31,416 bases of DNA, from the NCBI GenBank assembly GCA_026014495.1, contig JAOZIF010000114.1, positions 1-31,416 of the forward strand. Reading direction: 5' to 3'. Numbering within the stretch: the first letter of the stretch is position 1; every line of letters starts with the position of its first letter. A model generated the notes under the pieces. It was not told the origin of the DNA. It saw only the letters and a list, made by a program, of their open reading frames with translations, and searched no databases. Below are positions 6,583-20,732 of the stretch, piece after piece. The DNA comes from Candidatus Bathyarchaeum sp. (GTDB lineage: Archaea; Thermoproteota; Bathyarchaeia; Bathyarchaeales; Bathyarchaeaceae). Position numbers and translations under genes: made by a program.

Positions 6583-6695
6583 TGGCGCCGGGGAAGGGAT
6601 TTGAACCCTTGTGGCGCCAAGCACCACCGGTTGTCTTTTGACCCACATAATTGAGTCGTTTCGAGACCGGCACATTACCGCTCTGTCACCCCGGC
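6583..6695 (-). tRNA. tRNA-Ser(CGA) with 27-nt intron at position 37/38 (6633-6659) and encoded CCA
   Basis: Acceptor stem GCCGGGG/CCCCGGC, G73, CCA; anticodon stem CCGGT/ACCGG around CT-CGA-A|A; long variable arm GGTGC/GCGCC; T-loop TTCAAAT. Confidence 0.95.
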
Positions 6696-9278: not shown

Positions 9279-10176
9279 CTAACATTCTATCCAGAGCCTT
9301 TTTAGCCCTGACCCTTATATCTTCTGGAACTTTGACCGTAAACTGCTCATTCTTTAAAGAATCCAAAACAAGTGGCAAGGTAATCTTCTTCATTTGAAGA
9401 CAAGTCCCCCCAGGAGGTGCTTGAAAAAACACTTTTTCTGGAAACTCGAGCCTCAACCGCTCAACCACACCAATCTCCGTGGCGATAATGAACGTTTTAT
9501 CTGGACTTTGTCTAACATAGTTAACCATACCAGTTGTGCTAAAAACTTCATCAGCCAAATCAACAACAGCGGAAATACATTCGGGATGAACCAAAACTTT
9601 TGCATCTAAATGAATTTCTTTTGCGCGAAGAATACCCTCGGGAGAAAATTTTTGATGAACATAACACCACCCACTCCACGGAATAATTTTCTTAGCAGTA
9701 TTTCGCATCACATAATGTGCCAAATTAGAATCAGGCACAAAGATGACTTCGTCTTCCTCTAAAGAATTAACCACTTTTACGGCGTTTGCGCTAGTGCAAC
9801 AAATGTCCGATTCAGCCTTAACAGCCGCGGTTGTATTAACATAACTCACAACAGCAGCTTCAGGATGCTTTGCCTTAATTTTTCGCAAACCATCAACATC
9901 AACCATAGCCGCCATCGGACAGTTAGCCAACCTAGTTGGAATCAACACTGTTTTTTCAGGATTCAAAATATAAGCAGATTCAGCCATAAAGTCAACACCA
10001 CAAAAAACGATAATGTCTGCATCAGTTTCTGTTGCCTTTTTGCTCAATCCATAAGAATCGCCAATAAAATCTGCAACATCATAGATTTCTGGTCGCTGAT
10101 AGATATGCGCCAAAATTACAGCATTTTTCTCTTTTTTCAGCGCCTTTATTTTTTCAATTATATCCCGTCTGTCCAT
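9268..10176 (-). CDS. nadA: Quinolinate synthase (4Fe-4S)
   Basis: ILAHIYQ, FCGVDFMAE, CPMA, YVNT, CYVH, HPEC and CLQMK motifs. Confidence 0.97.
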   Translation of the reverse strand: MDRRDIIEKIKALKKEKNAVILAHIYQRPEIYDVADFIGDSYGLSKKATETDADIIVFCGVDFMAESAYILNPEKTVLIPTRLANCPMAAMVDVDGLRKIKAKHPEAAVVSYVNTTAAVKAESDICCTSANAVKVVNSLEEDEVIFVPDSNLAHYVMRNTAKKIIPWSGWCYVHQKFSPEGILRAKEIHLDAKVLVHPECISAVVDLADEVFSTTGMVNYVRQSPDKTFIIATEIGVVERLRLEFPEKVFFQAPPGGTCLQMKKITLPLVLDSLKNEQFTVKVPEDIRVRAKKALDRMLDVA

Positions 10177-13015: not shown

Positions 13016-14254
13016 TCAGTGAAAGCCAGCAAAACAATTAGGAACGTAGCCTAACAGTTCACGGAAGCGATCATTGTTTGTGAATACATTTCTAACAAGA
13101 CTACGTCCTATGCCCAAACGAATCTTCTTTGTGCGACCATGTCGACCCATGCTCACAACACGTGCATTTAATAATCCAATCATGTCCAACTCGCTGATTA
13201 AGCCGCTTACTCGCCGTTGAGTTAAAGGTGAAAGGCCGGTTTGGTCACATAATTCGCAGTATATTCCATATATATCTCCAGTTATGGTATAGCTAAGTTT
13301 TGTTTTACCTAACAGGTAAACACTACACAAAACTAATTTGGAATGCACTGGAAGATTTTCTAAGACTTCAAAAATACGATCGTGTTCAACACGTTTCTCT
13401 GCCTCTCGTACATGATTTTCACTAACAAAAGCTGTACCTTCACGCTCTGCTAATTCGCCTGCAACACGAAGTAGGTCTAAAGCTCGTCTGGCGTCACCGT
13501 GCTCTGCGGCAGCCAAAGCAGCACATAAGGCCACAGCACTATCATGAAGAGCACCATCTGAAAAAGCTAGTTGAGCACGTCTCCAGAGGATGTCTTGGAG
13601 TTCGGCTGCGTCATAAGGCCTAAAAACGATTTCTTCTTCGCTTAATGAGCTTAGAACTCGTGGATCCAAAAACTCCTTGAATCGAAGATCGTTTGAGATT
13701 CCTATTATGGATGTTCTGCCGTGACGAAGAGTCTCGTTTATTCTGGTTAATTCATAAAGGAGTTTGTCTCCACGGACTTTTATTAGGGCATCTATTTCGT
13801 CGAGTACAACAATGAAAATTTTTCTTTGCTGATCTAAACCGTCTTTGAAGCGATCAAATACTTCTCCGACTGCCAAACCAGTGAAAGGAACTTTCACATC
13901 TAAAGCGTCACATAAGCTTGAAAGAACTCTATATTCCGTGCCAGCTAAACGACAGTTTACATAACAGATTTCAATTAATGCCCCCAATTCATGTGCCTTA
14001 GATGATAGTTTATTCAAGACATACTTTGTGACTGCTGTTTTTCCTGTTCCCGTTTTTCCATAAATAAACACATTGGAACAAGGAGAGCACCTCAAGACGG
14101 GCGCAACTATTCCACCTAAACAATGAATCTGCTCATCGCGGTGTGGAAGTTTGTTTGGAATATAATCATGACGTAATACTTCTCGATCTTTGAAAATATG
14201 AGTATTACTCAGAAAACGATCGAAAACGTCTTCAAGAGTATCAATTTTTGTCAG
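13016..14254 (-). CDS. cdc6: Orc1/Cdc6 replication initiator (about 412 aa, probable CTG start)
   Basis: Walker A GKTGTGKT, Walker B VLDEID, GDARRALDLL and C-terminal winged helix. The frame stays open upstream of the tracked 14095 start through IFKDREVLRHDYIPNKLPHRDEQI to a CTG at 14254 preceded by AGAGGAG. The start choice is inference. Confidence 0.95.
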   Translation of the reverse strand: MTKIDTLEDVFDRFLSNTHIFKDREVLRHDYIPNKLPHRDEQIHCLGGIVAPVLRCSPCSNVFIYGKTGTGKTAVTKYVLNKLSSKAHELGALIEICYVNCRLAGTEYRVLSSLCDALDVKVPFTGLAVGEVFDRFKDGLDQQRKIFIVVLDEIDALIKVRGDKLLYELTRINETLRHGRTSIIGISNDLRFKEFLDPRVLSSLSEEEIVFRPYDAAELQDILWRRAQLAFSDGALHDSAVALCAALAAAEHGDARRALDLLRVAGELAEREGTAFVSENHVREAEKRVEHDRIFEVLENLPVHSKLVLCSVYLLGKTKLSYTITGDIYGIYCELCDQTGLSPLTQRRVSGLISELDMIGLLNARVVSMGRHGRTKKIRLGIGRSLVRNVFTNNDRFRELLGYVPNCFAGFH

Positions 14255-14302
14255 TCTTGTAATCTCCTCTAAGAGGTCGTGAAATTATTGCCTCGATTGC
14301 GT

Positions 14303-14315
14303 TTCCAGTAGATAA
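14303..14315 (+). promoter_or_regulatory. mini-ORB-like site in the cdc6 promoter/leader
   Basis: TTCCAGTAGATAA shares its first 10 nt with ORB3 and lacks the G-string. Confidence 0.6.
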
Positions 14316-14433
14316 AAACTATCATAAAAAAAAGTAGACAAATTGCACAAAAAGCTAAAGGGAAACAAAACTTTCTGAGTAACAGCGGTTTTAGTTTGTT
14401 TGTAGATATGTAAACAAGTTTATTGACGCTCGC

Positions 14434-14454
14434 ACCCCTTTGTTTCTTATGGAA
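14434..14454 (-). repeat. ORB element 1
   Basis: TTCCATAAGAAACAAAGGGGT matches the archaeal ORB consensus TTCCAnnnGAAAC-AAAGGGG. Confidence 0.88.
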
Positions 14455-14645
14455 AAAATAAGGTTTCTATGAGGTTTATCTCAAAAAAGAATCTAAAATT
14501 ATAAGGGATTTATTATATTAAAAAAAGAATCTTTCAGGCATTATTTGTTAAATTAGTATTTAGTGTTAATCATCAAAAAAAATGTAGTTATATCTACAAT
14601 TTTTTAACTTTAAGGTTGAATATTAATCCTAGCTCAACTTCTTTG

Positions 14646-14666
14646 ATACAATGGAAACAAAGGGGT
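14646..14666 (+). repeat. ORB element 2 (left arm degenerate)
   Basis: ATACAATGGAAACAAAGGGGT; the last 13 nt are identical to ORB1. Confidence 0.82.
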
Positions 14667-14764
14667 CGGAGTCTTGTTTACACTTTAAAATGTTAACGTA
14701 ATTTCCTGAGACACAAATATACTAATCGACGAAGAGCCTTCTTTATTTAATAACTAATTTAGCT

Positions 14765-15066
14765 GTTAACTCCACTGTGAACTAATGTGAAGTTAACTAG
14801 AACATTTCACCTTTCTCACTCCTTATTTTGTAAAATAGGCTTGATTATGCCTTTTTACAAGTATAGCGCCAACCCCTTGGTTTCTACTGGAAAACAGTCT
14901 TCATCTCTTTCTCTTTTTCTATTTTAAAAACAACACCCATAGTGAAGCTTGTGAACCTAATAACTTGTGAAAATTGCTTTTTTTAGATTTTTAGCCGATT
15001 TTAAAGGTTTTTCACTGTAAACTAAATACCACAATATCTATAACTTGTGAATAGTTACTTAGTGAA
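14765..15066. repeat. GTGAA-core repeats on the right side of oriC
   Basis: GTGAA/TTCAC at 14777, 14787, 14806, 14942, 14951, 14967, 15011, 15047 and 15062; TAACTTGTGAA exactly duplicated at 14961 and 15041. Confidence 0.6.
14872..14892 (-). repeat. ORB element 3
   Basis: TTCCAGTAGAAACCAAGGGGT. Confidence 0.9.
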
Positions 15067-15084
15067 CACTAACTGGTGTATGGC

Positions 15085-15495
15085 ATGCCTACCAAAAAAA
15101 TGCGCGTAGAGATCTTCAATAATGGGGACCGTTACACGATAACTTTTGAAGGTCAGGTTACGCGAGATAAGGCTCTTCGTTTACTTGATTTGGTTGAACT
15201 TTTAGGTGGAATGCCAGCAGTAAATCCTGAAACATCTTGTTCTACATCTGAGATGCTTAAGATAGAGAAAGTTCGTTTAGCTGCAGAAAAAAGTTTTCCT
15301 GTAGGTTGGTTTTCTTCAAAAGAATTGCAAGTTGAATATGAAAAACAGTTTAATGAACCAATCAGCCTAAGCACAGCCTCAACTTATTTGTCCCGTTTAA
15401 CAGATAGGGGGTTCTTCATCAAAAAAGGCGCTTCAAATCAGCGACGTTACAGAATCATGACTGCAATATCGAAACACCAACTTCACGAAAGATAA
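15085..15495 (+). CDS. Small two-domain protein with C-terminal winged helix-turn-helix, origin-adjacent
   Basis: C-terminal FSSKELQVEYEKQFNEPISLSTASTYLSRLTDRGFFIKKG...RRYRI wHTH pattern; ATG at 15085 follows GGTG (the ORF track starts at 15076). Confidence 0.75.
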   Translation: MPTKKMRVEIFNNGDRYTITFEGQVTRDKALRLLDLVELLGGMPAVNPETSCSTSEMLKIEKVRLAAEKSFPVGWFSSKELQVEYEKQFNEPISLSTASTYLSRLTDRGFFIKKGASNQRRYRIMTAISKHQLHER

Positions 15496-15572
15496 TAAAT
15501 AACCTGTCTTTTAAGATAAATGATTTAGCGCCGAATTGTAAGACTCTTCGTGTTTGAGGGGAAGACTCATCT

Positions 15573-16604
15573 ATGAACAAAATTCAAAATGATTTGGTTG
15601 AACTGAAAACTAAACTTAAATTATATGTCGATAAGGGTCGGCAAATAGGCTTTAGCGATATCAAACCGCAGCCTTTGATTGTCAAAAAGCCTGATGCAAA
15701 CAAAATTAAGCCTATAAAGAAAGTTAAACGTTGTAATTCACGATTTCTAGCTGTAGACTGCTCTACTCGAACTTTGAAAAGAGCCCATAACTGGGGCATT
15801 TACCTGATGCGCGTTGCATATGCTTCGGTGGAAAACCGCAAAGTTACTTGGGGCTACGATGAAAGCATTGTAAGTCCAGTTGGGGACCGTCGTTACCGCT
15901 CTAACTTTTTGATGGATCGACGACTACAACTAGAAAGCGAACTGGCTTTGAGGCTTCTTCACGAAGAGCCTACTGGGGGTCCAGAGTCAGGTGTGGAGAC
16001 TCTTCGTGGACTGGATGCCGGCGATTATATTCTGTTAGATGGTGCCAGTTTTTTTGGCGGAAAAAGAGGCTTTCACACCTCGCTTTACGAAGAGGCTCTT
16101 CGTAAAAAGGTTAATCTTTTTGCCGTGAGTAAACAGTCTCCTATGTTGTGTGATGAGAAGGGACGAGATTTTATGGCATCAACAAGTATTCTTGCGTCCT
16201 ATCCTCTATGGGTTTATCATCCAGTTAAAGAGGCAAATATGGAGGAGCATCTGTATGGGGATGTGTCTCTTGTAAAGTTGTGTGAAGACAGTAAACATGT
16301 TTTTCGTTGCGACATAATGAAGTCGGCAACATCCAGCGACGTTTCTGAACTACTTTCTCCTCTTACCTCACTTTCTGAAGACCCTCGATGTTTAGGTTAT
16401 CCTGTTACTCTTTGGCTTGCTCACGACTTTTCTGGAGCATCAAACTCAAAAATTCTTCAATATTATGATTTAATCGAGAAAACTCTGTCCGATGAAGGAA
16501 TCTTAGAGCCTCTTCGCATGGAAGAGCTTTCCTGCAGTTTTGCTGACAAGATTCATGGACTAACAAATCCTTTTGAAGGTGGTGAAGGCTTTGACAGAAT
16601 TTGA
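15573..16604 (+). CDS. nurA: NurA-family (RNase H-like fold) nuclease
   Basis: FLAVDCS, LESE, ILLDG, FAVSKQS and GYPVTLWLAH match NurA motif order; overlaps the HerA-like gene. Confidence 0.78.
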   Translation: MNKIQNDLVELKTKLKLYVDKGRQIGFSDIKPQPLIVKKPDANKIKPIKKVKRCNSRFLAVDCSTRTLKRAHNWGIYLMRVAYASVENRKVTWGYDESIVSPVGDRRYRSNFLMDRRLQLESELALRLLHEEPTGGPESGVETLRGLDAGDYILLDGASFFGGKRGFHTSLYEEALRKKVNLFAVSKQSPMLCDEKGRDFMASTSILASYPLWVYHPVKEANMEEHLYGDVSLVKLCEDSKHVFRCDIMKSATSSDVSELLSPLTSLSEDPRCLGYPVTLWLAHDFSGASNSKILQYYDLIEKTLSDEGILEPLRMEELSCSFADKIHGLTNPFEGGEGFDRI

Positions 16605-18147
16605 GCCTGTTGGTTTTGTTCGTGAAGTGAAAGGGGACACAGTCTCTTTTTTCTTAAATCAGGCGGTTACTCTTTCTTTTGGTCAGATTGTTCGAATAGA
16701 CTGTGATAACCGGAGTTTTTATGCGCGTGTCGTAGATGCTGGGAGCTCCTCTACCTTGAACACTAATGAGCAACTTCGTGAAGCTGAAGGAAAAGAGTCT
16801 TTTGGACCGTACTCCAGCTATAGGCATGTCGATGCAGTTTTATTGCTTGAAAGTAATGCTGGGAAAATTCGTTCTCCAACCTTCAATCCTAACTATATGG
16901 ATCATGTGTACACAATAACCGAGGAAGACTACGCGATTTTGAGGCTTTCGGGCGATTTAGAGATAGGGCGCCTGCGTTCTGGAGAAACTGTTCTAGGTGA
17001 AGTAGGAATAAGTGTAAAAGCTATCCCGAAGATGATGGGCATGTTCGGAATGACCGGTTCAGGAAAAACCAATACTGAACTTATTTTAAACGCCCGCATA
17101 ATCGATAACCCTGAAACTGTTGGACTTATCTTCGATTTCGCCGGTCAATTACTCTCTGGCAAAGATATTGGGGCCGAGAGCGGTCTAAGAGAACACCCTC
17201 TTTTTCATAGTAAGGTTCGTTACTATTCAGCACGAGAAGGCAAACTTTGCATCGGCTTGCGCACTCTTACTCCTGGACGATTATGGACCATTTTTCCTGA
17301 CATTGGGCGGCCTCAAATTCGGGTTTCTCGGAGGCTGTATGAGCAACTGGGCACCTGCTGGATTGAGCAATCGCTTGAAACATATCGTATGGAAGGGCAC
17401 TCTGGGGTCGGACGAATTATCAATTATCAACAAAAGAATGTTATTAGCGCTTTGATGAGCCGGCTTTCCGATCTTCCTCCACACCTCTACCCACCTTCTA
17501 ACTATAATTTCATAGACGATGTTGTTCAAAACATCAGTAAAGGAATCACTTGTCTTATTGACATATCTGGCTTAACGTCTGAAGAGCAACAAAACGTCAC
17601 CTGTCTCACAGCAACAAACGTTGCACGGCACTACAAGCGGTCGTGGGAGACCAATTTTGAGGCTTGGAAAAAGCTCCCAACTCTGTTGATAACTTTAGAG
17701 GAAGCTCACGAGTTCCTTGATCCAGAAATACACAAAACCATCTTTTCTGACATTGCTCTCACGTATCGTAAGTATCGCGTTGGGTTAAATGCTGTGACTC
17801 CAAGGCCTTCCAAGATAAATCGTGACGTCTTTGCTGAGCTTTGGACCAAAGTTATTATGAAAACTGAGCTAAAACGAGACAGGGACTATCTAACCCAAAA
17901 TACGCCGTATATGGAATATAGTGATACTGAAATCAAAATGCTTGACATCGGAGAAGCTTTGCTGATTTCAGAGCCACAGATTCGGTTCGCAGTTCCGATA
18001 AAAGTTATTCATTACCCTGATTACCTACGGCGGAGAGGGAAACCCGATTATGATTTACCTGAGTCGAAACCTCTTTCTGAAATGGAATCAAACCTGAAAC
18101 GACTTAAAGCTGCCGGAAAGTCTCTTTCGTCTGAAGATACTGTCTAG
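16591..18147 (+). CDS. herA: HerA/FtsK-family ATPase with N-terminal HAS barrel
   Basis: VGFVREV...GQIVRI barrel, Walker A GMTGSGKT, Walker B ITLEEAHEF and RKYRVGL; TTG at 16591 follows GGTGGTGAAGG (the ORF track starts at 16573). Confidence 0.88.
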   Translation: MTEFEPVGFVREVKGDTVSFFLNQAVTLSFGQIVRIDCDNRSFYARVVDAGSSSTLNTNEQLREAEGKESFGPYSSYRHVDAVLLLESNAGKIRSPTFNPNYMDHVYTITEEDYAILRLSGDLEIGRLRSGETVLGEVGISVKAIPKMMGMFGMTGSGKTNTELILNARIIDNPETVGLIFDFAGQLLSGKDIGAESGLREHPLFHSKVRYYSAREGKLCIGLRTLTPGRLWTIFPDIGRPQIRVSRRLYEQLGTCWIEQSLETYRMEGHSGVGRIINYQQKNVISALMSRLSDLPPHLYPPSNYNFIDDVVQNISKGITCLIDISGLTSEEQQNVTCLTATNVARHYKRSWETNFEAWKKLPTLLITLEEAHEFLDPEIHKTIFSDIALTYRKYRVGLNAVTPRPSKINRDVFAELWTKVIMKTELKRDRDYLTQNTPYMEYSDTEIKMLDIGEALLISEPQIRFAVPIKVIHYPDYLRRRGKPDYDLPESKPLSEMESNLKRLKAAGKSLSSEDTV

Positions 18148-18857
18148 AAATAGCTGGCTTCTCTTTTCTTTAGTATCTTTTGCATTTCCTCTTTTAGTCT
18201 ATAGACATAAGGCATCTTATGGGTGTCTCTTTCTAGATATCCGTCTTTGTATAACTTTTTCATTAGCCGTGCAGTGTGTTCCCTTGTGAGGCTAATCTTT
18301 TCTTTTATTTCTGGCGCTGTTTTCTCTCCCTCTTTACCGATAGTTTCAAGAACCATCAGTTCTGTTTCTGTCAGCGGCTCTAAGGCTTTCTCCTTTTTTA
18401 TTGGAATTGCTGCCTCTATCTTTGTTTCCGGAACATGAGCCTCATGTTTGATTTTCTCGATCTCAGCCAGATTCTTTATAACTTTCTCCTGAGCTTCCTT
18501 TATGCCTTCAACCTCATTTTGCATCTCTTTAAGATGACCTGAAACTTTCTCCTCAATGTGTGGAATGTCTTCTACTCGCTTAGTAAAATCGGTTAGCCTC
18601 CCTTCATAATCTTCTACTTTTTCTACGACTTTTTTATTTTCCAACACTATGTTTTCCATTTTCTGAGCAACAAACAGAAATCTGTCTTTTTGCCTCCTGA
18701 ATTGTCCATCAACGCTTACAACAATGTCGTCTACAACTTCTTTTGCCCTATCATATTCTTGGCGTAGTGTCATTATTCGTCGATAGTAAAGAAATAGTGC
18801 CGAAATTGTGCCCAGTAACAGCACCGACGTCACTACTAACATAACGTCTGAACTCAC
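18144..18857 (-). CDS. Membrane-anchored coiled-coil protein with C-terminal MarR-like winged helix
   Basis: N-terminal hydrophobic helix MLVVTSVLLLGTISALFLYY followed by RR; about 110 aa of E/K-rich heptad region; then LTETELMVLETI...TAPEIKEKISLTREHTARLMKKLYKDGYLER...YVYRL. Confidence 0.85.
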   Translation of the reverse strand: MSSDVMLVVTSVLLLGTISALFLYYRRIMTLRQEYDRAKEVVDDIVVSVDGQFRRQKDRFLFVAQKMENIVLENKKVVEKVEDYEGRLTDFTKRVEDIPHIEEKVSGHLKEMQNEVEGIKEAQEKVIKNLAEIEKIKHEAHVPETKIEAAIPIKKEKALEPLTETELMVLETIGKEGEKTAPEIKEKISLTREHTARLMKKLYKDGYLERDTHKMPYVYRLKEEMQKILKKREASYF

Positions 18858-18869
18858 AGTCTCAACTCC

Positions 18870-20732
18870 TCACATGTGATTTCAACGTGATGTCGTGTGA
18901 TGTGCATGAGTTATCACATATCACAATACTATATAAGTAAACTTAAAGTTTTTCCTAAATTCTGGCTTCGTGACATCACACGTCACAATTGCTTCGCGTT
19001 GAAGCTTCAGTGAAACTGTGCTTCTTAGCAGAGTCGTCTGCTTTTTTCTCTCCCTCTGTTTCGCCTTCTTGTTATTTAAAACTGTTTAAAAGCGTTATTT
19101 TTTGTATTTGAGCGTAAAATGGGCTTTTTTTAAGATGGACTTTTTCGCTCTATTGCTATTTGTACTTGTGTTTTGCTTTGGCCTTTGCTTGGGTGTAACT
19201 CAGTCTTTTTTTGTGATTATTTGGTTGTGATTTGTGATGTCACGCTCTTTTTGATAATTTCCGGGGGTTAGTTAACTCTTCTAGGCTGTTTTTGAGCTCT
19301 TCGTGGAGTTGTGCCACTGTCCTAACATGTTCTTCTTTTGGTCTCTTTTTTGCAAATTCTCGTTGGGTGTTTATGTATGTTTTTAGCTTGTTTGCTGCCT
19401 CTAAATATGGTTCTAAGCTGATTTCTTCGAGAATTCCTAGGTATCCGAGAAGCAGAATTGTGTATATTGATTGGGTGACGTTCTGTCTTGCTTGCCTTAA
19501 ACTCCTGTTAAAAGCGCCTCTAGTTACGGCTAAAATTCGTAATTTGGCTTTTTCGTCGTATTTTAGGCTTTTATCGGATATATTTTCGGCTAAAACGTCT
19601 ATTAGAAGAGTTTCTATCTGTATTTTTGTTAAATTGCTATTTTTTGACATTATTTTTACTAACGGGTCATTTAATGAGTAATTTAACCAATTTTGAGCCT
19701 TTTCCTTCAATTTCAAACTCTTTACACCATTCCCTATTCTAAAGGATACGCTTTTGTATACCGTGCCTTGTGATAAAAAACTTTGCTGCCTATCGCCCAA
19801 AAAATCAATGCCCTTCTTGTCTATATTTCCTAAAAAATAATTAAAATTTTACTAGAACATTATGCAGCATCTATAAATCCAGTACTGAAGAATCATTAAT
19901 GCATAATGAGAAACAACTCTTTTTCTTGAATTTTAGTGGAAAACCTTTTCTGATATAGAATGCGCTGCTCCCTTGTTCTTTGCTTTATGTTTTGCTTGGT
20001 GGACGTTAACTTACTCCCTCCAAACATCGACTGTTTGCTCTAATCTTGTGATTTGTTTGCCTTTTTGTGATTTTGTTCGTGTATGATATGTGATTTTCTA
20101 GTAACATCTAAATCACGTGTGATTATCACAGAATCACGTGTGACGTCACGTATACCGGGTGTTTAAAAACACGCTATTTTTTGACTCCTTTTCTGTTTTA
20201 ACCTCTTTTTTGGCCTTTTTACTTGTGCTTGTTTGTGGCATGCCTATTTTTTTGTGATTCTTTTGATATCACATAAAGCTTCATTATCTGTCTGTGTTGA
20301 TGGCTATTATACAAACGTTTTTAGTGAATATGCTGTGTTGTTTGTCTGAAACTCAAATTCGAACTTTTGTGTGTGCTTGTCTGTTTGATTTTATTCAACT
20401 ATATGTATTTTTTTATTTGTTGTTGAGTCTGTTTGATGTGTTGATGAATAATTGGTTGGAGCAACCTGTGTGGTGGGTGTGTGTGAATTATGCATCTACT
20501 ACATAAATTTTTACTTAAAACTTATTATTTATGATTGATATGTTGATAAACTTTTGTTTATTTTATATGTTGGTGATGTTTCTGTTGTTTAAAACACTCC
20601 TCCTTTTTCATGTCTTTTTCTTTTTGATTTAGTGTTTTCACTTCTGGCTTTTAGGACAAATATTTAAGCCAATGTTGAATTATAATTTGAAACAAGTATA
20701 TCACACACGGAATTAAACAGATTCATGTCACA
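18870..20732. repeat. Clusters of 7-bp NRTCACR units (direct and inverted)
   Basis: Examples: TATCACA-TATCACA 18912-18925, CATCACA-CGTCACA 18974-18987, TGTGATT-TGTGATG 19226-19239, AATCACGTGTGA twice (20111, 20132), palindromes TCACATGTGA 18870 and GTGACGTCAC 20140. Confidence 0.75.
19240..19716 (-). CDS. Uncharacterised helical protein, possible HTH-like DNA binder (about 158 aa)
   Basis: Open frame with SNLTKIQIETL...DEKAKLR...VTRGAFNRSLRQARQNV; probable TTG start at 19716 after GGTG (the ORF track starts at 19800). Confidence 0.7.
   Translation of the reverse strand: MKLKEKAQNWLNYSLNDPLVKIMSKNSNLTKIQIETLLIDVLAENISDKSLKYDEKAKLRILAVTRGAFNRSLRQARQNVTQSIYTILLLGYLGILEEISLEPYLEAANKLKTYINTQREFAKKRPKEEHVRTVAQLHEELKNSLEELTNPRKLSKRA

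Follow-up and report, generated by a model that had tools for sequence, protein, structure and literature searches.

Conserved repeat arrays and three small proteins beside a predicted replication origin of Candidatus Bathyarchaeum

Bathyarchaeia are among the most abundant archaea in sediments. To our knowledge, their cell biology is unknown, and how chromosomes are positioned and separated in archaea without SegAB or a clear ParABS system is an open question. Here, we describe an ancient origin-proximal neighbourhood of Candidatus Bathyarchaeum sp. (assembly GCA_026014495.1, contig JAOZIF010000114.1), in which a predicted origin of replication (oriC) is accompanied by two private arrays of cis-acting sites and by genes for three small proteins, namely a soluble winged-helix-turn-helix (wHTH) protein, wHTH1, a protein combining a transmembrane (TM) helix, a coiled coil and a wHTH domain (hereafter TM-wHTH), and an orphan helical protein. 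The window, i.e. the whole stretch of 31,416 nucleotides that was analysed, is a complete 31.4-kb contig (C63) of a 2.19-Mb, 93%-complete metagenome-assembled genome. Its gene order is PhoU (minus strand), PolD DP1 (plus), Cdc6/Orc1 (minus), oriC, wHTH1 (plus), NurA (plus), HerA (plus), TM-coiled-coil-wHTH (minus), orphan (minus), a 0.94-kb spacer, Elf1, GGGPS and PolD DP2. A sequence-only reading of the same stretch had proposed that the five genes between oriC and elf1 form one module for tethering and segregating DNA at the origin, with HerA as the translocase. Gene calls, Pfam searches and a search for origin recognition boxes (ORBs) bore out the presence of all five genes and of oriC. The features of the origin, the three small proteins and the two repeat families are as follows.

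13016-14281, minus strand: cdc6/orc1 initiator gene (Pfam Cdc6_C 8e-28, Cdc6_lid, AAA)
14433-14896: oriC core, with ORB1 at 14435-14455, an inverted partial ORB2 at about 14650-14670, ORB3 at 14873-14893 and AT-rich DNA between them
14776-15068: GTGAA (TGTGAA) array, from the site list and the footprint map
15085-15495, plus strand: wHTH1, 136 amino acids, with an N-terminal beta-hairpin and helix and a C-terminal winged helix
18144-18857, minus strand: TM-coiled-coil-wHTH protein, 237 amino acids, with a TM helix, a coiled coil of about 115 amino acids and a MarR/TrmB-type winged helix
18871-18992: GTGAY arrays over the TM-wHTH promoter, from the site list and the footprint
19213-19243: GTGAY array abutting and overlapping the orphan stop codon (19226-19243 at least 90% identical in 20 relatives)
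19240-19710, minus strand: orphan, an all-helical protein of 156 amino acids belonging to no known family
20048-20273: second GTGAY region, with three direct sites at 20048-20094 and a weak pair at 20254-20273

As in Orc1/Cdc6-dependent origins, repeated ORBs lie beside cdc6, two of them exact and one an inverted partial copy. A pattern search returned two exact matches to the full element against a chance expectation of 0.02, and ORB1, ORB2 and ORB3 all appear as conserved blocks in a footprint map of 15 relatives. The GTGAA sites are interleaved with these elements: one TGTGAA pair lies between ORB2 and ORB3 (14776-14791), a second follows ORB3 (14942-14956), further GTGAA sites occur at 14967 and 15011, and a promoter-proximal pair (15046-15068) directly follows the conserved TATA-like CTATAAC of wHTH1 (15038-15044). 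The wHTH1 gene itself is transcribed divergently from cdc6, across the origin, and starts at a conserved ATG at 15085 in the alignment of relatives. Its predicted structure has a mean predicted local distance difference test (pLDDT) score of 72, rising to about 90 within the wHTH. The C-terminal domain resembles the winged helices of Fur, MarR and ORC proteins (VIA Z up to 10.7), and the AspA winged helix is among the weak fold matches; these matches concern the C-terminal domain, the part covered by the fold searches. The protein has no Pfam match of its own, and Penicillinase_R is weakly matched by 10 of 17 orthologues.

The TM-wHTH protein has hydrophobic residues 6-25 followed by RR, leaves about five residues outside the membrane and carries its wHTH at residues 160-225. 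Heptad contrast over residues 35-150 is 0.60 against 0.28 +/- 0.05 in shuffled sequences, none of 500 shuffles being as high. Three Pfam models are passed, MarR with 33.0 bits (5.6e-8; cut-off 24.6), HTH_27 with 28.5 (cut-off 22.2) and, narrowly, TrmB with 25.8 (cut-off 25.6). An extracytoplasmic sensor domain of the ToxR/CadC kind is absent from the protein, with only some five residues ahead of the TM helix and nothing after the wHTH. This architecture is kept class-wide, and the recognition helix TREHTARLMKKLY is near-invariant, as expected for a protein with a conserved target.

Repeated and conserved GTGAY sites flank the TM-wHTH and orphan genes, an arrangement in which this locus resembles partition systems, where the sites lie beside the gene of their binder. 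Sites at 18871-18925 fall between a conserved TATATAA (18930-18936) and the TM-wHTH start codon, and a further block at 18969-18992 lies upstream of the TATATAA. The second region contains a 38-bp block of overlapping GTGAY palindromes (20112-20149) with an identity of at least 90% across 19 relatives, set in flanking spacer that is unconserved. The start of the orphan is some 400 bp away from this block and that of elf1 some 600 bp, so that neither promoter is near. Adjoining the block, at 20150-20650, are some 500 bp of GT-rich, strongly strand-skewed DNA that is wholly unconserved among close relatives, in which the orphan-elf1 spacer varies from 0.56 to 1.4 kb and reaches 3.4 kb where genes have been inserted. 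Between 18.8 and 20.7 kb, the long intergenic regions gave no match in Rfam or tRNA scans.

The repeat clusters had been described as dense from the letters of the window, and at the scale of the whole 2.19-Mb genome they are the densest of their kind. The top 300-bp window for GTGAA is 14751-15050, with 8 sites, and the top two for GTGAT are 20001-20300 (9 sites) and 18851-19150 (6 sites). Paired forms such as RTCAC-N2-GTGAY or GTGAY-RTCAC occur 3-6 times each in the genome, with up to three copies at the locus. Both repeat families are also phylogenetic footprints, holding the same intergenic places across close relatives, and the motifs are under purifying selection. Between TM-wHTH and the orphan, GTGAY positions in the relatives are 95.8% identical to the window against 54.3% at other positions, a value reached by none of 2000 circular shifts. 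In the orphan/elf1 spacer, the relatives' alignments give 71% for GTGAY positions and 44% elsewhere (p ~0.003), and in the cdc6/wHTH1 region GTGAA positions are 84% conserved compared with 72% elsewhere (p ~0.02, alignments of 15-20 relatives).

The orphan starts at a TTG at 19710, placed there because several relatives have stop codons upstream of this position. It is the most widespread member of the set: a profile search found it, always single-copy, in 246 of 301 Bathyarchaeia genomes and in 138 of the 152 high-quality ones, and the profile also matches eight further Thermoproteota families and misses many others. Profile searches of Pfam, PDB and NCBIfam gave no match, and fold searches, made with a weak query model, returned generic helical bundles only. 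Prediction of a complex between the orphan and the cytoplasmic part of TM-wHTH scored 0.00, which speaks neither for nor against binding. As a lead that we do not claim, residues ~27-80 show a pattern resembling the helix-turn-helix (HTH) of sigma-70 region 4; an Atlas cluster at rank 22 (score 0.82) has Sigma70_r4 in 14% of its members, and Pfam is silent.

In close relatives the neighbourhood is preserved as a whole. In thirty loci from different Bathyarchaeia species the order of all eleven genes is the same, even where amino-acid identity falls to about 50%, so that the run Cdc6-oriC-wHTH1-NurA-HerA-TMwHTH-orphan-Elf1, whose synteny the sequence-only reading had made its first check, is indeed kept in some 30 species. 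This synteny, with all five genes well conserved in f1 and f2, two families of the order to which the window belongs (HerA 61-89% identical), would fit a single origin-segregation machine in which the wHTH proteins load onto the repeats and HerA translocates the DNA, as would the membership of HerA in the FtsK-HerA pumping ATPases. The two genes that set this proposal apart are the following.

15573-16604, plus strand: NurA-like nuclease (Pfam NurA PF09376, 24.5 bits against a cut-off of 21)
16573-18147, plus strand: HerA-family hexameric ATPase (DUF87, PF01935, 1.2e-12; GMTGSGKT Walker A)

Across a wider range of genomes, the five genes do not hold together. NurA-HerA lies between wHTH1 and TM-wHTH only in f1 and f2; the slot lacks the pair in the sister family f3, in every further family of Bathyarchaeia that was sampled and in Brockarchaeota, lineages in which the three small proteins and the arrays persist. 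There, wHTH1 abuts the TM-wHTH gene, or unrelated genes fill the equivalent slot, the block carrying hypF, an XRE-type regulator or acetolactate synthase. Moreover, HerA is coupled to the nuclease rather than to the binders, nurA overlapping herA by 32 nt (16573-16604), a coupling kept in relatives, and Mre11 and Rad50 are encoded together on contig C142. The five-gene machine is thus largely refuted by its phyletic pattern, which leaves it hardly any probability, and a role of HerA as translocase of the module finds no support. We read NurA-HerA as a later, lineage-specific joint insertion into the ancient neighbourhood, because it is missing from the slot outside f1 and f2 while the trio and its arrays persist. 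In four loci of other Bathyarchaeia families (L044, L045, L041, L035), hypF and a gene for an XRE-type HTH protein of about 190 amino acids are inserted between TM-wHTH and the orphan.

The pair is most likely an ordinary end-resection pair for double-strand breaks (DSBs), working with the unlinked Mre11-Rad50. This assignment rests on HerA being, among the paralogues of this genome, the one closest to DSB-repair HerA, on the matches and invariant residues of NurA, and on the Mre11-Rad50 genes of C142. The best PDB match of HerA is Sulfolobus HerA 4d2i (4.6e-15), and an orthologue profile of NurA has Sulfolobus NurA 2ygk as its top PDB match (E 0.018); D62, D156 and H284 of NurA are invariant in 14 sequences, including the C46 paralogue, and are candidate catalytic residues by sequence alone. 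The earlier statement that none of the five genes has a housekeeping role is doubtful for these two. Compared with canonical archaeal HerA-NurA, the likeness lies in the translational coupling of a nuclease gene to that of a hexameric ATPase, in the nearest structures and in the presence of Mre11-Rad50 in the genome. The differences are that the window pair stands outside a mre11-rad50 operon, that it is divergent, and that a second NurA-like/HerA-like pair exists on contig C46. The best NCBIfam match of the window HerA is the DSB-repair HerA_Thermprot, at 69.5 bits; on the DSB-repair equivalog models (NF040937 / NF040819) it scores 69.5 bits where the cut-off is 800 and 42.6 where it is 970. 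With the cut-offs well out of reach, it is a distant member of its best-ranked family.

The presence of HerA also raises the question of a defence island, i.e. a HerA-based anti-phage system with its regulators, since HerA weakly matches the anti-phage HerA models of PADLOC and NCBIfam. Its best NCBIfam match, however, is the DSB-repair and not the anti-phage type, and the block lacks SIR2, DUF4297 and any other defence partner. PADLOC gave no match for NurA, wHTH1 or the orphan, and only weak wHTH and coiled-coil matches for TM-wHTH. Conservation is high and vertical, and the anti-phage-like HerA of this genome is the C46 paralogue. We rejected this reading, to which we attach practically no probability, as the PADLOC and NCBIfam matches to HerA are generic and no system-specific partners accompany them. 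The C46 pair (L031 7842-10387, minus strand), whose HerA scores best on the anti-phage HerA model, is itself maybe a defence system. Further, contig C81 (L033 3047-7285) carries a gene for a 681-amino-acid SMC/Rad50-like ATPase adjoining one for a 592-amino-acid SIR2_2-domain protein, possibly a defence pair, and contig C146 encodes a HerA/VirB4-like ATPase of 717 amino acids. In another Bathyarchaeum chromosome (L014, CP070820.1), nurA is truncated to 141 amino acids (9577-10002) and Cdc6 and wHTH1 are not found within 10 kb upstream, which places a rearrangement breakpoint inside the block.

To follow the trio and the arrays beyond close relatives, 20 kb around the orphan were scored by tblastn and hidden Markov models in 20 distant Bathyarchaeia families. 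The core that recurs in them is DP1 / Cdc6 / oriC / wHTH1 / TM-wHTH / orphan / Elf1 (GGGPS) DP2. Within 500 bp on the 3' side of the orphan, there are 6-16 GTGAY sites in the 13 distant loci with TM-wHTH and 0-1 in the five without it, against a background of about 1.4. One locus (L041) was counted as ambiguous, its TM-wHTH profile match being just 38 bits, and another (L035) was excluded from the count because the relevant stretch is masked. GTGAY arrays were seen only where TM-wHTH is present and, the orphan being present in all the distant loci compared, the array follows TM-wHTH and not the orphan. Likewise, GTGAA arrays were confined to loci with wHTH1: in the 900 bp upstream of Cdc6 there are 3-11 GTGAA sites (median ~6) where wHTH1 adjoins the origin and 3, the background level, in three Cdc6 loci without it. 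In one rearranged genome (L054), the GTGAA array and one ORB remain with wHTH1 while cdc6 is 5 kb away.

Outside the Bathyarchaeia, wHTH1 is kept beside Cdc6 in Brockarchaeota, as it is across the class, and the complete order Cdc6-wHTH1-TMwHTH-orphan-Elf1-GGGPS-DP2 is found there. The orphan-TMwHTH pair lies 14.5 kb from the best cdc6 in Ca. Caldarchaeum subterraneum and 32 kb from cdc6 in Ca. Terraquivivens. In three of four outgroup genomes, the set is found 14-32 kb from cdc6. No GTGAY arrays were seen at the Terraquivivens locus. In Caldarchaeum (L055 9750-10400), the arrays are intragenic, falling within the orphan and TM-wHTH coding sequences, and their position is therefore independent of promoter geometry; the Caldarchaeum TM-wHTH has just ~146 amino acids, with a short linker and almost no coiled coil. 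From this range, spanning Bathyarchaeia, Brockarchaeota, Caldarchaeales and Terraquivivens, it follows that the set is old and tends to stay near the origin.

Origin linkage, as claimed by the sequence-only reading, is thus strong across classes, and for the TM-wHTH unit it is not obligatory. In family f19 (four genomes of three genera), TM-wHTH, a GTGAY array and the orphan are kept between DP1 and Elf1-GGGPS-DP2, and neither an orthologous cdc6 nor wHTH1 was found in these genomes, the only Cdc6 being a paralogue of 29-33% identity. In the single-contig genome of this family, the sole Cdc6-like gene is 344 kb from the orphan. At least five families have lost TM-wHTH together with its arrays.

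The account that we favour, at a little under an even chance, is that of two dedicated pairs of binder and array, in which wHTH1 would act at the origin and at its own promoter, and a membrane-anchored TM-wHTH dimer would repress its own gene and hold origin-proximal DNA at the membrane. Which protein binds which array, and for what purpose, we infer from site position and co-occurrence. Specifically, wHTH1 would bind the TGTGAA sites, thereby repressing its own gene and occupying the origin, and could in this way modulate the access of Orc1/Cdc6; self-repression and origin occupancy are suggested because the pairs lie between ORB2 and ORB3 and directly after the gene's own TATA box. Two TM-wHTH chains are predicted to dimerise through a parallel coiled coil, anchored in the membrane and presenting both DNA-binding heads to the cytoplasm. 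This dimer would bind about 20 GTGAY half-sites in four clusters over 1.4 kb, 4-5 kb from oriC. Sites over its TATA box and 5' leader would bring about autorepression, and the protein may in addition keep the DNA around these sites, close to the origin, at the membrane, perhaps with the orphan gene in a loop. Such an architectural role is suggested by the distance of the 38-bp palindrome block from promoters and by the sheer number of sites. The orphan is possibly a partner or a target.

Several observations weigh against this account. All of the proposed protein-DNA pairings rest on co-occurrence among related and hence non-independent genomes. The retention of TM-wHTH, array and orphan in f19 without adjacent cdc6 or wHTH1, together with the losses in at least five families, means that the TM-wHTH unit can be dispensed with and need not stay with the origin. 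wHTH1 and Orc1-type origins are tightly linked, though with Cdc6 and wHTH1 adjacent, their joint loss in f19 may reflect a single deletion. The location of many sites is just what a plain autorepressor would require. Only one of five models of the orphan reached a pLDDT of 71, the other four remaining at 44-48. Finally, origin synteny alone can mislead, as is illustrated by the haloarchaeal 'origin-associated' oapABC genes (= arvABC), which proved to drive vesicle formation and not replication (PMC10927574). Like the set described here, these are conserved uncharacterised genes beside orc1/oriC; their proteins, a small GTPase and zinc-ribbon proteins, are unrelated to those of the window, and we take them as a caution rather than a model.

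The main rival of the tether account is local regulation, in which wHTH1 and TM-wHTH would be ordinary transcription factors, autoregulators that also control the orphan, elf1-GGGPS-DP2 or nurA-herA, with the membrane anchor only sequestering the factor or releasing it on a signal and with no chromosomal purpose served by any positioning of the DNA. We hold this to be possible rather than probable. Both genes have conserved sites in their TATA-proximal and leader regions, MarR and TrmB are classic families of regulators (PMC4706686), public annotations name the TM-wHTH protein a MarR regulator, and f19 retains the unit with no cdc6 nearby, just as several families have lost it altogether, all of which would suit such regulators. 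Simple autoregulation, however, needs far fewer than the roughly 20 half-sites in four clusters, and accounts poorly for a super-conserved block 400-600 bp from any start codon or for the intragenic arrays of Caldarchaeum. With only some five residues outside the membrane, there is no sensor domain through which a signal could act, and motif counts over the 2.19 Mb give no sign of a regulon elsewhere in the genome. The persistence of the set near cdc6 across classes, at 14-32 kb in the outgroup genomes mentioned above, likewise speaks for more than local control.

Very unlikely, in our view, is a third explanation in which the GTGAY arrays would be iterons of a second, replicon-type origin, or in which the orphan and TM-wHTH would be the relic of a domesticated plasmid or partition system, with the winged-helix protein as a Rep-like or centromere-binding factor. 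Direct and inverted heptads do resemble iterons where they lie beside the AT-rich, strand-skewed and unconserved spacer, the array travels with the gene of its putative binder as in parS/parB and iteron/rep pairs, and f19 keeps the unit after losing its Orc1-type origin. Yet no Rep, ParA, integrase or other mobile-element genes are found nearby, the unit is single-copy and vertically conserved in a fixed chromosomal context across classes, and the dip in G+C is modest.

The remaining observations concern the genomic setting. The first ATG, GTG or TTG in the 422-amino-acid open frame of cdc6 (window region 14096-14281, minus strand) would leave only 359 amino acids, starting about 13 residues before Walker A, and the start codon is therefore likely non-canonical. 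A second Cdc6/Orc1 gene of 402 amino acids is located on contig C80 (13761-14969); its upstream region is short, and no ORB, GTGAA array or wHTH1-like neighbour was found there. GC skew across the window tracks gene orientation and cannot tell a single origin from two. A profile scan of the window proteins confirmed that ParA/SegA, SMC and CdvA are absent from the window. For the genome as a whole the picture differs, as SMC, Mre11-Rad50 and 13 CbiA/ParA-MinD family ATPases are encoded on other contigs. The rest of the contig, beyond 13-25 kb, encodes housekeeping functions (SRP54, PAC2, deoxyhypusine synthase, nadABC and a trp operon). A tRNA of 110 nt at 6586-6695 on the minus strand, presumably intron-bearing, was detected by Rfam (47.9 bits) and missed by ARAGORN. 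A sigma-70 promoter and terminator scan is uninformative for an archaeal window.

A candidate membrane-anchored binder with a private, conserved array a few kb from oriC, next to a second putative binder with sites interleaved among the ORBs, offers a concrete and cheaply testable case of how an archaeal chromosome might be positioned. If the tether account fails, the locus would still be unusual in having two dedicated, deeply conserved autoregulators next to an archaeal origin.

Among archaeal DNA-binding proteins, the closest parallel in site recognition is found in TrmBL1/Tgr. TrmB-type winged helices read TATCAC half-sites, the TGM element being TATCAC-N5-GTGATA (PMC4706686); TM-wHTH scores on Pfam TrmB and MarR, and the core of its presumed array, RTCAC/GTGAY and often TATCAC, is the TGM half-site. 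TrmB proteins, in contrast, are soluble and have a sugar-sensing C-terminal domain and dispersed regulons, whereas TM-wHTH has a membrane anchor, no ligand domain and sites essentially at one locus. With the partition systems SegAB of Sulfolobus and AspA-ParB-ParA of pNOB8, the set would share a site-specific binder with palindromic sites beside its own gene. Unlike in these systems, no ParA/SegA ATPase is linked at the window locus, sequence similarity to SegB or AspA does not extend beyond the generic fold, and a membrane anchor is unprecedented in SegAB and pNOB8 systems.

The nearest architectural parallels are bacterial. RocS of S. pneumoniae, RicO of S. aureus and RacA of B. subtilis are established origin anchors, and an unrelated TM domain can replace the amphipathic helix of RocS (bioRxiv 10.64898/2026.03.06.710092). 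Like TM-wHTH, they unite an HTH or winged-helix domain, a coiled coil and membrane attachment in one polypeptide, and RicO and RacA each recognise a specific motif whose copies cluster near the origin, as TM-wHTH would if it binds the GTGAY arrays 4-5 kb from oriC. TM-wHTH differs from all three in its reversed module order (TM, coiled coil, wHTH), in having a true transmembrane helix instead of an amphipathic helix or DivIVA, and in having a MarR/TrmB-type domain by Pfam where they have a MerR-like one. The archaeal sites, further, are packed into about 1.4 kb beside the binder gene, whereas those of the bacterial anchors are spread over the origin region. A bolder version of our account, rather unlikely as it stands, would make TM-wHTH and its GTGAY arrays the first archaeal chromosome-membrane anchor of an origin region, convergent with RocS, RicO and RacA and ancestral to Bathyarchaeia, Brockarchaeota and early Nitrososphaerota, with wHTH1 as a lineage-specific accessory that binds inside the Orc1-type origin and tunes its firing. 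If this were true, origin-membrane anchoring by a DNA-binding head, a coiled coil and a membrane anchor would have arisen independently in archaea and in Firmicutes.

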